Positions 1 through 64,000 of a DNA stretch of 64,000 nucleotides are shown one piece after another; the stretch's first letter is position 1, and each line of letters starts with the position of its first letter. This DNA comes from Escherichia phage JP4, in sequence record PQ330092. One strand, written 5' to 3'. The notes beneath the pieces were generated by a model, which searched no databases, was not told where the DNA came from, and saw only the letters and a list, made by a program, of their open reading frames with translations. A program made the position numbers and the translations under genes.

Positions 1-23
1 TTTGGATATTTTAGATATAAACA

Positions 24-52
24 TTGACACCTGTTCTATCTTTCTGTATTAT
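24..52 (+). promoter_or_regulatory. sigma70-like promoter (TTGACA-N17-TATTAT)
   Basis: Consensus -35 and -10 hexamers with 17-bp spacer upstream of the 79..438 gene. Confidence 0.5.
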
Positions 53-78
53 GTACATCACCAAATGAGGAATACAAC

Positions 79-438
79 ATGGCATCTTTAAGTGAAATCG
101 CAGAATACAACCCACTAACAATCTCAACAATTCAACGTACAAAAACTTTTTATTTCCGTCCTGCTGATGGATGGAAACGTGGAATGAATGGTGACTATCG
201 AGTACTGGAAGATTCACTCATCGAGCGTATCAACTATGAACTACAGAAGTATGAAGGTGTTAAAGTTGTGCGTTCAACTTCTCGTTATTTTGAGTACTAC
301 ATTGAGTCTTCAACTGTAAATGAAAACTCATCATTCTCGGTGGACAACACTGATATTCTTCGTAATGCAGTTGGTCTGTTATGCAACATTGCAGAAGAAA
401 TGGGCTTAACTATTACTACTATGAGTGAATTAGAATAA
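79..438 (+). CDS. hypothetical protein (119 aa)
   Basis: ORF with GAGGA Shine-Dalgarno upstream of ATG; downstream of promoter. Confidence 0.6.
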   Translation: MASLSEIAEYNPLTISTIQRTKTFYFRPADGWKRGMNGDYRVLEDSLIERINYELQKYEGVKVVRSTSRYFEYYIESSTVNENSSFSVDNTDILRNAVGLLCNIAEEMGLTITTMSELE

Positions 439-484
439 CATCAAGGATTCACTTCCCCTCCCATATTTTATATAAGGTGTAAGA

Positions 485-1096
485 ATGAAATTAGATGCAA
501 AATTAGAAGAACTATTGAATACCAATAACTATGAACTTATCAATAAAGATGGGTGGAATTACCTAATTAATGATGATAATATCAAGTACAAATACTTATC
601 AGATGATGTTATTGAATTTAAACTAATCGACAATTTGTTTGAACATAATATTCTTAGATACAACTTCAATAATAACGAATTTTCGATTGCACAAAAAGTA
701 AATGTTTCACATCCAGTATGTGGTTTATATATGGTCCCTGATGACAGCGACGAAATTTTTAGTATATTTCCAAACTTGCATTTATTGAATCGTAAAAATA
801 CCATTTCATATATGAATGATTTGTATTCAGGTATAATCTTCTATCCAAACGGTGATTGGGAAGGTACGTTTGATGTGGATGTTAATGATCGTATTTCTTA
901 TATCGGAGGTGTATACCAGCATCAAACTGTAGAAAGCAATGAAAACGGTCATGTATCTAGTAATAGTGAAATTATTACTAAAAAATTCACTAACTATCAA
1001 GAGTTTGAAGCATATCTATTCCAATTAGAATCGGTTGAATCTTTCTCTGACTCAGTAGGGTCGGTTGTGAATCTATTACGTGACTACCATAAATGA
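485..1096 (+). CDS. hypothetical protein (203 aa)
   Basis: ORF with AAGGTG RBS; AT-rich codon usage consistent with neighbours. Confidence 0.6.
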   Translation: MKLDAKLEELLNTNNYELINKDGWNYLINDDNIKYKYLSDDVIEFKLIDNLFEHNILRYNFNNNEFSIAQKVNVSHPVCGLYMVPDDSDEIFSIFPNLHLLNRKNTISYMNDLYSGIIFYPNGDWEGTFDVDVNDRISYIGGVYQHQTVESNENGHVSSNSEIITKKFTNYQEFEAYLFQLESVESFSDSVGSVVNLLRDYHK

Positions 1097-1107
1097 ATAA
1101 AAATAAA

Positions 1108-1140
1108 GGGTTGACTTCGGTCAGCCTTTTTTGCTATAAT
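1108..1140 (+). promoter_or_regulatory. dual terminator/promoter element: GGGTTGACTTCGGTCAGCC hairpin + T-run inside TTGACT-N18-TATAAT
   Basis: Perfect stem with UUCG loop followed by T6; -35 TTGACT lies in the stem and TATAAT follows; precedes 1167..1403. Confidence 0.55.
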
Positions 1141-1166
1141 TATTTCATAAACTCAAGAGGTAATAC

Positions 1167-1403
1167 ATGAAACTATCTTTTATACGTTTAGCAGAATTCT
1201 TCGGTACTGATATTATTACTTTACAACAAATTGCAGACAATACTTCATTAAGTACACAAGAAGTACTTGACTTGGATGTAATTAAGTGCGATAATACTTC
1301 CATCGATTACAAAGAAGGTCTTGTCGAAAAAGATAAGATTCAGGCTAAGATTAATGGTGCTGGACGGGTTCAGTACTGGAAAGGAGTATTAAGTAATGTT
1401 TGA
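1167..1403 (+). CDS. hypothetical protein (78 aa)
   Basis: ORF with AGAGG RBS directly after the terminator/promoter element. Confidence 0.5.
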   Translation: MKLSFIRLAEFFGTDIITLQQIADNTSLSTQEVLDLDVIKCDNTSIDYKEGLVEKDKIQAKINGAGRVQYWKGVLSNV

Positions 1404-62348: not shown

Positions 62349-62406
62349 TTGACAGTACTCAAATGTTTTAGTACTATATGTACATACCAACACGGGGAAA
62401 AACAAA

Positions 62407-62649
62407 ATGATTACTTTAGAAAAACGTATCAAAGAAACTACATCGCTGGTGGAATTGTTAACAGTACTGAAATGTAAAACTACTCGGTTTAGTACACCGG
62501 ACTTTATTAATATGGTTGATGTTAACGGTCGTTATCGTATTGCAGTAGAACAAGGCACGGCAAAAGTATTCAGTACTAAAAACACTAAGGAAGTGATTCA
62601 CGCGGTTAGTGTAAAAAAAGTAGTTGCCATTGATAGTAAAGTACTGTAA
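62407..62649 (+). CDS. hypothetical early protein (copy 2 of 42293..42535)
   Basis: Identical sequence at +20114. Confidence 0.65.
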   Translation: MITLEKRIKETTSLVELLTVLKCKTTRFSTPDFINMVDVNGRYRIAVEQGTAKVFSTKNTKEVIHAVSVKKVVAIDSKVL

Positions 62650-62680
62650 TATAGTTTCATTAACTCAAGGAGAACATGCA

Positions 62681-63265
62681 ATGCGTAATTATACTAAATT
62701 CATCCGTACACTGTCAGAAATGGAAACCAACAAAGAGATCCTTTCAGCTTGTCGGTTAGCTGGTCTGGAGATCATCGGGGCAGGTTCTTCCCGTATAGTT
62801 TTCGCTTTAAATGATCGGTTAGTGATCAAGGTCGCGAATTGTGATGCGGGTGTAGAACAAAATGAAACAGAATGTAGGGTATGGAATTTTTTAGACTATG
62901 ACCGCCCTCAGTTGAAACAGTTCTTCGCTAAAGTGCATATGCATTTAAGCGATCCTGATAATATGTTTATTGTTATGGATCGGTTGAGTACTGCAAGTAA
63001 AGGCAGTGTAAAGCACGTTAACGCGTGCAATGAATTAAAGTACAATATTAAACGTAATGCCATTGAACGCCAGCACCGCTTTGCTGATGCACTACAACAC
63101 GTTGATGATACATTATCAACACTAACGATAAGAGATATCAGAAAACAGAATATCGGCCAGGATCGCAACGGCCTTATTAAAGTACTTGATTACGGTTTAA
63201 CCCGCAATATCTGGAATCAGTACTATAAAAAGCGTGATGTAAAAGCCGTAACTATAACACGATAA
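62681..63265 (+). CDS. putative protein kinase-like early protein (copy 2)
   Basis: Identical to 42567..43151. Confidence 0.5.
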   Translation: MRNYTKFIRTLSEMETNKEILSACRLAGLEIIGAGSSRIVFALNDRLVIKVANCDAGVEQNETECRVWNFLDYDRPQLKQFFAKVHMHLSDPDNMFIVMDRLSTASKGSVKHVNACNELKYNIKRNAIERQHRFADALQHVDDTLSTLTIRDIRKQNIGQDRNGLIKVLDYGLTRNIWNQYYKKRDVKAVTITR

Positions 63266-63280
63266 AAAAAGATTAAAAAA

Positions 63281-63313
63281 GGGATTGACTCCGGTCAGTC
63301 CCTTTGCTATTAT
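63281..63313 (+). promoter_or_regulatory. dual terminator/promoter element (copy 2 of 43167-43199)
   Basis: Identical sequence at +20114. Confidence 0.55.
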
Positions 63314-63487
63314 ATATTCATTGAGAGATAACTCACTGACCCATAGGGTGCGGAAGTGTATCTATTATATAAGTATTCAGTACTGAAAACTATTTGATAA
63401 AAAGTACTTGCATTGTACTTAGAATCAAGTATAATGTTTTATATCGAGAGGGGGAAACGGTTCTCCCTGGCAATAAGGAATAAAATC

Positions 63488-63709
63488 ATGACTACAATGA
63501 CTTGCATTTACGCTTCCAATCTTCTGAATGATGCGGCCTTTAATGTTGATTCAGAATATCAATGTTATCGGGATGAAAATAAAAAAGTTTTTGTAGTTGA
63601 TAATAATGGTTTCCATATTGAATTACAATCCGGCTTCACTGGTGTTGATGGTAAATCAGTATGGGGCGTACAGGATGATAAAGGCACATATCATTTTAAA
63701 CGTAATTAA
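63488..63709 (+). CDS. hypothetical early protein (copy 2 of 43374..43595)
   Basis: Identical sequence at +20114. Confidence 0.65.
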   Translation: MTTMTCIYASNLLNDAAFNVDSEYQCYRDENKKVFVVDNNGFHIELQSGFTGVDGKSVWGVQDDKGTYHFKRN

Positions 63710-63793
63710 GTATTGACAAAGTATATTAGTACTGTATAATAGTTTACATCAAGGGGAGAATAGTTCTCCCCGATACTAAAAGGAAACAAAATT

Positions 63794-64000
63794 ATGTCCA
63801 GCTACTCCGCTACTATGATCATTAAAGATATGAACGGTAATCCTACTTCTGCTGGTGGATCATTTGGAAACATTAATTTAGATGGTCGGTTATCCATGCA
63901 ATCAGCCATCGATGCAGCGAAAGAAGTTTTTAAGAATGAATGTACTGTTAGTAAGCTGGATTATATGGGATTCGCTATCGAAAAAACTAATCGTTTTGTG
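63794..64000 (+). CDS. hypothetical early protein, 3-prime truncated by window end (copy 2 of 43680..43952)
   Basis: Identical start region at +20114; window ends inside the ORF. Confidence 0.6.
   Translation, partial: MSSYSATMIIKDMNGNPTSAGGSFGNINLDGRLSMQSAIDAAKEVFKNECTVSKLDYMGFAIEKTNRFV

Follow-up and report, generated by a model that had tools for sequence, protein, structure and literature searches.

Host-like codon usage and near-consensus sigma70 promoters distinguish the long direct terminal repeat of Escherichia phage JP4

Introduction

A stretch of 64,000 nucleotides of Escherichia phage JP4 (PQ330092), called the window below, raises the question of why one part of a phage genome should be richer in GC and more host-like in its codons than the part beside it. 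The window is the right end of a jumbo coliphage genome of the genus Asteriusvirus (121Q/PBECO4-like), followed by copies of its direct terminal repeat (DTR). The original prediction contrasted an AT-rich block with a GC-richer repeat, and proposed different evolutionary origins or distinct expression regimes as the cause. The dichotomy is confirmed in part; its substance is real, but it was overstated. The explanation that we favor, with a probability of roughly 0.75, is that the DTR carries immediate-early genes which use the host RNA polymerase (RNAP) and the host tRNAs, and whose codons have been selected to match. A second codon feature of these genes, a solitary CGG, is described separately.

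Results

The compositional border is the edge of the terminal repeat

By megablast of the window, the closest group consists of 121Q, PBECO4, G17 and E9.1, with a piecewise identity of 92–99%. From nt 26792 to its end, the window is self-identical at an offset of exactly 20,114 bp with 0 mismatches, the last mismatch being nt 26791. Since the window continues past the end of the genome into its start, the DTR is present twice (Table 1). This exact self-identity shows that what the original prediction called the repeat is the DTR. Direct terminal repeats of about 20–21 kb were reported for the genus Asteriusvirus (PMC13070987). The JP4 sequence appears to conform, with the same ~20-kb sequence directly oriented at both ends, and E9.1 also has a DTR-homologous stretch at both ends of its record (including E9.1 nt 1–13677).

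The GC content is 0.345 for nt 1–26791 and 0.383 for nt 26792–46905. In 1-kb windows, the mean is 0.346 ± 0.030 on the left and 0.383 ± 0.022 in the DTR (Mann-Whitney p = 1.4e-4). The cumulative sum (CUSUM) change point falls at about nt 26,750, which coincides with the DTR left edge and not with the block start near 28.4 kb that had been given. The amplitude is only 3.8 points, and 4 of the 26 left windows reach the DTR mean. Coding GC is 0.348 on the left and 0.399 in the DTR, the corresponding intergenic values are 0.330 and 0.345, and the non-coding leader of the DTR has a GC content of 0.386.

Genes were called with a simple model of open reading frames (ORFs), Shine-Dalgarno (SD) sequences and 3-periodicity, and the calls were cross-checked against the E9.1 annotation and a second ORF rule. 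The reference set for the codon adaptation index (CAI) comprised 29 genes of E. coli K-12 for ribosomal proteins and elongation factors. In the 49 DTR genes, the GC contents at the three codon positions (GC1/2/3) are 0.50/0.34/0.37 (GC3 0.369), and the median CAI is 0.427. The left side, treated as one block in the original prediction, actually comprises three unrelated modules on differing strands, with GC3 of 0.266, 0.231 and 0.346, CAI of 0.32, 0.26 and 0.28, and GC1 of 0.36–0.40. DTR and left genes differ in CAI (p = 2e-10) and in GC3 (p = 3e-6). CAI sets the DTR apart from each left module (p = 1e-4 to 2e-6); the GC3 of the ~60-residue gene array of module 3 is not separable from that of the DTR (p = 0.57), though the CAI of this array is low. 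The RCC1-like array of module 2 reaches a GC of 0.405 through GC2 (0.47), with a GC3 of only 0.23. Thus the difference between an AT-rich and a GC-richer block is significant in GC, GC3 and CAI, and its size was overstated. CTG, CCG and GCG occur 20.2, 7.4 and 12.1 times per 1000 codons in the DTR, compared with 1.6–9.6, 1.2–2.5 and 2.5–7.3 on the left. With these codons and the CAI raised, the description of DTR codon choice as enterobacterial-like holds, but only in relative terms.

Two genes inside the repeat, 37336–37533 and 41708–41962, had been singled out as AT-rich exceptions, and they indeed show the lowest CAI values in the DTR. A GC3 below 0.25 is also found in DTR genes 42016–42234, 38622–38810 and 43374–43595. 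The converse exception is the left gene 2583–3353, which is DTR-like (GC3 0.39, CAI 0.51).

The genome context was taken from an unannotated relative, EC22.5-2 (EC22 below), assembled here at 351,992 bp with its DTR collapsed. Its genome GC is 0.341 and its GC3 per 10 kb is 0.17–0.27 nearly everywhere. Both DTR bins, with GC of 0.38–0.39 and GC3 of 0.38, are the maximum of the genome, and GC3 decays to 0.31–0.32 just downstream. The DTR genes differ from the rest in GC3 (0.377 vs 0.243, p = 2e-23) and CAI (0.437 vs 0.334, p = 1.5e-11), while 216 length-matched small genes elsewhere have a GC3 of 0.256 and a CAI of 0.336. The compositional outlier is therefore the DTR and not the left block, which is 26.8 kb of ordinary bulk genome, made of three modules under other promoter classes.

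The codon shift is directed towards host preference

From the rest of the genome to the DTR, the fractions within amino acids rise for CTG (0.06 to 0.27), CCG (0.06 to 0.31), ATC (0.18 to 0.49), CGC (0.08 to 0.27), GGC (0.07 to 0.25) and TGC (0.18 to 0.57). They fall for AGA (0.23 to 0.08) and ATA (0.18 to 0.08), as well as for CTA, GGA and ACA, and remain flat for CTC, GTC, GGG and AGG. Codon by codon, the difference between the DTR and the rest is correlated with the preference of E. coli (r = 0.80), also when only the G/C-ending codons are considered (r = 0.71, p = 2e-5). The shift is thus towards host-preferred codons and is not a uniform gain of GC.

The seven phage tRNAs are Gly-UCC, Ser-UGA, Arg-UCU, Ser-ACU, CAU, Asn-GUU and Thr-UGU; no tRNAs were found within the window. 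Codons cognate to them have a frequency of 57 per 1000 in the DTR, compared with 102 per 1000 elsewhere in the genome (p = 1e-25).

A promoter cassette is private to the DTR

The DTR contains 108 sigma70 matches against 68.5 ± 8.8 expected. Of these, 12 are perfect (12/12) and 12 match at 11/12, almost all of them on the + strand. The adjacent 20 kb (nt 6792–26791) contains 88 against 98.9 ± 10.6 expected. The textbook sigma70 promoters ascribed to the repeat were thus borne out, with 24 sites of at least 11/12 compared with none in the adjacent 20 kb. The TACTAT-type and box-type promoters, which had been taken as a trait of the left block, do not distinguish it; both are sigma70-type and both are present in both blocks. 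The TACTAT type is TTGACA-17-TACTAT, found at 3363 and 21683 on the left and at 41959 and 42235 in the DTR. The box type is a hairpin-embedded TTGACT-17-TATWAT, found at 1111 and 2525 on the left and at 35882, 39902, 43171 and 45429 in the DTR.

Another promoter class is private to the DTR. It forms an array of cassettes (Table 1), each of which has, in order, an AT-rich stretch with AGTAC (AAAAAGTAC), TTGCAA or TTGACA, 16 nt, TATAAT-nn-TTTACAT, a GC hairpin, an SD sequence and ATG. In the 352-kb genome, 24 copies of the core GTATAATnnTTTAYAT are present; every one is on the + strand, and essentially none lies outside the DTR. Judging by their consensus, the cassette promoters would be recognized by the unmodified host sigma70 holoenzyme. 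The 16 cassette hairpins that were folded have minimum free energies of −10.9 to −15.9 kcal/mol, and compensatory changes are seen in 3 of 7 pairs. Hairpins of this main class lie downstream of the −10 box, in the 5′ untranslated region, and have no T-run; their position and the lack of a T-run make it unlikely that they terminate transcription. A terminator-like look is confined to the four box-class sites in the DTR. The cassette hairpin most likely stabilizes the mRNA 5′ end or attenuates read-through, as would follow by analogy with the promoter-early stem-loop (PeSL) cassettes of T4-type phages (PMC2839356, PMC4122927).

No single relative covers as much as 80% of the DTR. High-scoring segment pairs against EC22 end at nt 28895, 31013, 31181, 33683, 33883, 35232, 35407, 36086, 39160, 40201, 40731 and 43594. 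These ends coincide with cassette positions; it is at the cassettes that genes have been gained, lost or replaced among close relatives.

The array also contains an 80-nt inverted repeat (31564–31643 and 37527–37606, 80% complementary), which puts a TTGACA-17-CATAAT promoter on the − strand at 31632–31604, within an otherwise + strand array. This promoter may drive an antisense transcript.

Solitary CGG codons tag the DTR genes

One codon departs from the trend towards optimal codons. CGG is the sole non-optimal codon enriched in the DTR, where it makes up 16–18% of Arg codons; its share in highly expressed genes of E. coli is 1%. The EC22 genes outside the DTR, 99,697 codons in all, contain CGG in frame 7 times, while in their two other frames the trinucleotide is found 309 and 461 times. 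The enrichment in the DTR is about 110-fold, and that of the next most enriched codon is about 5-fold. The window DTR has 36 in-frame CGG codons among 4,210 codons and 198 Arg codons (Table 1).

These codons are spread thinly over the genes and are placed at a preferred distance from the start. At least one CGG is present in 31 of the 49 DTR genes (permutation p = 0.001) and exactly one in 27 (p = 0.0009). Codons 20–35 hold 19 of the 36 CGG codons but 47 of the 198 Arg codons (p < 5e-5); this share of 53% compares with 18% expected from sequence coverage (p = 3e-6). Out-of-frame CGG (18–19%) and other codons (12–29%) are not clustered there. A frame-independent CGG motif acting at the DNA level was considered and rejected, since out-of-frame CGG is common in both blocks and has no positional clustering. 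The sequence contexts of CGG are unrelated, which indicates that the CGG-bearing genes are not paralogs. An in-frame CGG directly follows a T in 24 of 36 instances and directly precedes a C in only 1 of 36; this may represent a context preference for the preceding codon. Three of the six CGG-bearing EC22 genes outside the DTR stand behind sigma70-type promoters.

The same pattern is found in 121Q and in E9.1, which has 0 CGG in 9,424 post-DTR codons and in which 16, 27, 2 and 1 genes carry 0, 1, 2 and 3 CGG, respectively. In Klebsiella phage K64-1, the 15,314 core codons include no CGG, and about one third of the DTR-like genes carry CGG, mostly a single one. EJP2, a diverged Asteriusvirus, shows neither half of the signature: its 48 DTR-like genes contain 7 CGG, and its 13,828 core codons include 13 (Fisher p = 2e-6 and 4e-8). 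Nor does PA5oct, a phage of another family and another host, show it; its CGG enrichment is only 3.8-fold, like that of other GC-ending codons. The signature was not found in the early regions of Phapecoctavirus and Vequintavirus. Exclusion of CGG from the bulk and tagging of the DTR thus occur together in K64-1 and are both absent from EJP2 and PA5oct.

At the CGG sites of the window, the EJP2 codon is a different Arg codon in 15 cases, encodes another amino acid in 13 and is CGG in two. Codon 29 of gene 36521–36733 is AAG in both EJP2 and Phapecoctavirus tuntematon, indicating that the CGG there is derived. CGG identity is not significantly more conserved than that of other Arg codons in EC22, 121Q and E9.1 (p = 0.77, 0.21 and 0.07), so that purifying selection on the codon is not demonstrated at the depth of these close relatives.

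Gene content and other features of the window

The DTR proteins include a DksA/TraR-like zinc finger (37865–38122, 3e-9) and a GNAT acetyltransferase (38187–38543, 4e-9). The remaining ones are phage ORFans that match PHROGs of unknown function, in phage-only families. With the zinc finger and the acetyltransferase counted, this inventory of small ORFan proteins fits an immediate-early or host-takeover region. An IMG/VR scan with a 203-residue DTR protein retrieved 121Q only, and the wider sampling of relatives used GenBank records. An Rfam search of nt 1–47000 at the gathering threshold returned no family.

The leader at the head of the DTR contains iterons of 8-bp period (GGATGGCT/AGACGGCT/AAACGGCT) at 27538–27702, and with these it could be an origin or a packaging signal. 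The non-coding sequence after its perfect sigma70 promoter is possibly a non-coding RNA, as suggested by the PA5oct DTR.

In left module 2, the RCC1-like ("regulator of chromosome condensation") paralogs are tandem, about 390 residues long, and all start with ATGTTA. Most of these genes are preceded by a terminator, GCCAGTACTTGATACTGGC, followed by the motif TAAATATAGTATAATGAATAAAGGAGG with no −35 box, a third promoter motif. It resembles the sequence upstream of a baseplate-wedge gene, and the capsid gene has a T4-like TATAAATA; from these motifs, late expression of the module is plausible. The ~60-residue array of module 3 contains internal DNA repeats (22160–22405/25741–25986 and 22820–22997/23202–23379) and represents a third codon style, with raised GC3, low CAI and no CGG.

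Several oligonucleotides have unusual frequencies. GCGC is completely missing in the window, the 352-kb relative (160–294 expected), E9.1, EJP2 and 75 kb of K64-1; PA5oct (146 per 100 kb), tuntematon and E. coli have many copies. This suggests avoidance of restriction, or of the site of a nuclease that the phage itself may encode. The 352-kb genome also lacks AGGCCT, CCATGG, CAGCTC and CCCGAG. In this genome of the relative, the palindrome AGTACT has 919 copies where ~119 are expected, and CAGTACTG is found 51 times in nt 1–46905 of the window, often as TTCAGTACTGAA. These palindromes lie beside −35 and −10 boxes and within terminator stems and the DTR leader (for instance at 26725–26736, 26773–26784, 27311–27347 and 28321–28390), and a dimeric phage protein may bind to them. 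GATC is strongly depleted on the left (24 against 59–84 expected) and in the bulk genome (526 against ~1050), and is at expectation in the DTR (80 against 69–93).

Table 1. Positions of the features in the window
Feature	Position (nt)	Strand	Remarks
Unique right-end sequence	1–26791		three unrelated modules
Left module 1, 13 small genes	1–6906	+	GC 0.318, GC3 0.27, CAI 0.32
Left module 2, 12 RCC1-like paralogs	7382–21634	−	GC 0.36–0.40, GC2 0.47, GC3 0.23, CAI 0.26
Left module 3, tandem ~60-residue genes	21737–26528	+	GC3 0.35, CAI 0.28, no CGG; TTGACA-17-TACTAT promoter 21683–21711 at head
Hairpin-embedded box promoters	1111–1140, 2525–2554	+	class common to left side and DTR
DTR right copy, 20,114 bp	26792–46905	+	GC 0.383; self-identity at 20,114-bp offset
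DTR left copy, first 17,095 bp	46906–64000	+	100% identical to 26792–43886
DTR leader, no ORF	26792–28400	+	perfect sigma70 promoter 27157–27184; many TTCAGTACTGAA palindromes
49 called DTR genes, median ~75 residues	28523–46753	+	GC3 0.37, CAI 0.43
Cassette array, 20 regex-defined copies	28440–46076	+	promoter-hairpin-SD
Cassette −35 starts, first ten	28440, 28900, 29580, 30141, 30943, 31198, 31982, 33285, 35188, 35417	+	
Cassette −35 starts, last ten	36004, 36439, 38130, 40022, 40748, 43294, 43599, 44148, 45123, 45992	+	
In-frame CGG, first bases, 1–18	28625, 29065, 29342, 29732, 30403, 31080, 31327, 31812, 31893, 33774, 34434, 35513, 36155, 36365, 36608, 36919, 38361, 38688	+	
In-frame CGG, first bases, 19–36	39606, 40286, 40472, 40910, 41744, 42371, 42639, 42702, 42867, 43455, 43773, 44317, 44582, 44880, 45365, 45727, 45775, 46119	+	
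AT-rich exception in DTR	37336–37533	+	GC 0.237, GC3 0.25, CAI 0.27, no CGG, no cassette within 130 nt
Low-CAI DTR gene	41708–41962	+	CAI 0.21
Less GC-rich DTR genes	42016–42234, 42293–42535	+	GC3 0.24–0.28; behind TTGACA-17-TACTAT promoters at 41959, 42235

Discussion

A proposed immediate-early region tuned to the host

The DTR would be an immediate-early host-takeover region in which about 50 ORFan genes, all very small, form about 44 units. Most of these would be read by the unmodified host RNA polymerase from a near-consensus sigma70 promoter of their own. Behind each promoter come a GC-rich hairpin at the 5′ end and a strong SD. The genes would be translated by the host tRNA pool alone, before any phage tRNAs, middle or late factors are available, and this dependence is the proposed reason for their host-preferred codons. 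Selection would have moved the synonymous codons towards CTG, CCG, ATC, CGC, GGC, TGC and NNC in general, and away from AGA, ATA, GGA, ACA and CTA, which the bulk genome uses freely and which are partly served by the phage tRNAs. Such selection would raise GC3, and thereby GC, only in the coding sequence of the DTR.

For JP4 we infer the early timing, from the promoters and by analogy, as well as translational selection as the cause of the codon shift. RNA sequencing of PA5oct showed early expression of its DTR genes and a dependence of the phage on the host RNAP (PMC7318152). The early-transcribed part of the PA5oct DTR has a GC3 of 0.37–0.41, compared with 0.20–0.22 in the structural region; the first 7 kb of that DTR, not highly expressed early, are not GC-rich (GC 0.317). 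The DTR-like genes of EJP2 have a GC3 of 0.39. The proposal of distinct expression regimes in the original prediction is thus supported by the private near-consensus promoters for host RNAP, the codons directed towards E. coli, the restriction of the shift to coding sequence and the parallel in PA5oct, and it is the part of its interpretation that stands; different origins do not hold up as the main cause.

Several points weigh against this explanation. For JP4, the word early is deduced from its promoters and from a relative that belongs to a different family. Across the codons ending in A/T, the shift correlates only weakly with host preference (Spearman −0.03), and the DTR CAI of 0.43 is far below that of highly expressed host genes. 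The post-DTR genes (51–80 kb in EC22) and the ~60-residue array have a GC3 of 0.30–0.35 but a low CAI, so some of the variation in GC3 must have another cause. The codons cognate to phage tRNAs drop by 0.105 within their families, no more than the 0.110 of other A/T-ending codons (p = 0.94); the complementarity between the DTR and the phage tRNAs is therefore not specific.

Other sources of the difference

The DTR could instead be a patchwork recently acquired from the host or from GC-richer coliphages, its composition reflecting that of the donors. Some exchange has evidently taken place. Besides the patchy coverage by relatives and the alignment breakpoints at cassettes, the DNA of 28978–29217, 36521–36733 and 43949–44140 is 84–89% identical to genes of Phapecoctavirus, Vequintavirus or Justusliebigvirus, and in Phapecoctavirus tuntematon and Vequintavirus APCEc02, too, small genes stand behind similar promoter-hairpin cassettes. 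These similarities suggest that large coliphages of different genera draw on a common pool of early cassettes. A host origin was rejected, since the whole DTR gave no megablast match in 5,426 complete E. coli genomes, and its proteins belong to phage-only families. An E. coli-like oligonucleotide signature was rejected as well; in tetranucleotide usage, the correlation of the DTR with E. coli is 0.32–0.35, no higher than that of bulk chunks. A horizontal island is expected to lack the oligonucleotide signatures of the recipient, and the DTR has them: like the bulk, it contains no GCGC (27–47 expected), compared with 207 per 38 kb in E. coli and 15 per 3.9 kb in tuntematon, and the 3-fold excess of GTAC/AGTACT is common to both. 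Both GCGC sites of the gene shared with tuntematon are mutated in JP4. The same split in GC3 also recurs in PA5oct and EJP2 despite different gene sets. Foreign origin is thus an unlikely main cause. It contributes locally; the DTR is a mosaic of cassettes, to which shuffling adds some mosaicism.

Recombination between DTRs is expected during concatemer formation and circularization, and GC-biased repair or gene conversion accompanying heavy recombination might enrich the DTR in GC irrespective of coding function. The position of the GC change point exactly at the DTR edge and the GC of the non-coding leader agree with such a regional mutational bias. However, in the part with genes, intergenic GC is barely above that on the left while coding GC is up by 5 points, the non-preferred codons CTC, GTC, GGG and AGG do not rise while Val GTA does, AT-rich genes persist within the DTR, and the start of the PA5oct DTR, not highly expressed early, has a low GC. 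We regard this bias as a quite improbable cause. Still less can be said for a by-product of the GC-rich cassettes, of amino-acid composition or of noise from short genes, in place of codon choice. The cassette hairpins are GC-rich, GC1 is higher in the DTR than on the left, and the genes are short, but analyses of coding sequence only agree with the overall result, codon fractions within amino acids differ strongly, the length-matched small genes elsewhere do not share the shift, and intergenic GC in the DTR is below its coding GC. This explanation is already largely refuted and has next to nothing in its favor.

Relation to known systems

The preferred reading, an immediate-early DTR adapted to host RNAP and host tRNAs, is mostly a case of a known principle, and the details are new for this phage group. 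The T5 pre-early region and the SPO1 host-takeover module are early blocks of small ORFans located in long terminal repeats, as here. The PA5oct DTR likewise has dozens of small ORFans in one orientation, strong host-type promoters and SDs, and a GC3 higher than that of the rest of its genome (PMC7318152). The JP4 DTR differs from these three in its extent of 20 kb and about 50 genes, most with their own cassette; in the literature searched, no description of the codon shift or of the CGG feature was found for these systems.

The DTR cassette shares with the PeSL cassette a unit of ~100 bp, an AT-rich stretch, sigma70 −35/−10 boxes, a GGGG...CCCC stem-loop, an SD and ATG. Both flank ORFans in a hyperplastic region, with breakpoints between relatives at the cassettes. 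The differences are that the array lies in the DTR of a Rak2-like jumbo phage, and that the main-class stem-loop follows the −10 box and has no T-run. The genome that hosts the array is an Asteriusvirus and not of the T4 type (Tevenvirinae-like), and similar cassettes are also seen in Phapecoctavirus and Vequintavirus. From its architecture, the DTR cassette would work like a PeSL, and we do not class it as one.

Cowe and Sharp reportedly described in 1991 a temporal partition of codon usage in T4. Such partitions in phages have been treated further (PMC5683454), and in JP4, too, one class of genes, that of the DTR, is significantly nearer to host preference. As in T4 and other phages, early and late genes would differ in synonymous codons, with phage tRNAs reading codons common in bulk or late genes and rare in the host. 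The partition in JP4 differs in mapping onto the DTR with a sharp boundary, and in the ~110-fold early enrichment of the non-optimal CGG.

A possible role of CGG

The solitary-CGG signature is the part that most deserves follow-up. Literature searches for CGG or tRNA-Arg(CCG) together with phage gave nothing relevant and no account of the pattern, and we know of no described counterpart to one positioned codon per early gene. T-even phages cleave host tRNA-Leu(CUG), and the lambda bar minigene sequesters a tRNA; in these cases a single host tRNA is removed or sequestered and later phage genes avoid the codon. By analogy only, CGG may be a temporal gate at the codon level in 121Q-like (and K64-1-like) jumbo phages, which would shut off host and early genes. 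We consider this gate, which would depend on the single low-abundance host tRNA-Arg(CCG), a tentative and rather doubtful idea. Soon after infection, a phage effector or the sheer amount of early mRNA would abolish or saturate decoding by this tRNA. The CGG-free middle and late genes would be immune, while host and phage early mRNAs would stall about 25–30 codons in, where queued ribosomes would occlude the start site. Host shut-off and early-gene shut-off would then be simultaneous.

Implications

The DTR, its private sigma70 cassette, host-adapted codons and CGG offer a means to delimit, from sequence, the immediate-early regulon in Rak2-like jumbo phages, a poorly studied group of candidate therapeutic phages. 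Modular shuffling of the PeSL type is extended to phages other than the T4-type ones. A possible new shut-off of host and early genes through a single tRNA is suggested by the CGG pattern and could be tested cheaply; EJP2, lacking both halves of the signature, and K64-1, with both, provide natural controls. If true, the gate would bear on phage tRNA biology, on codon design in engineered phages and on the timing of expression without dedicated repressors.

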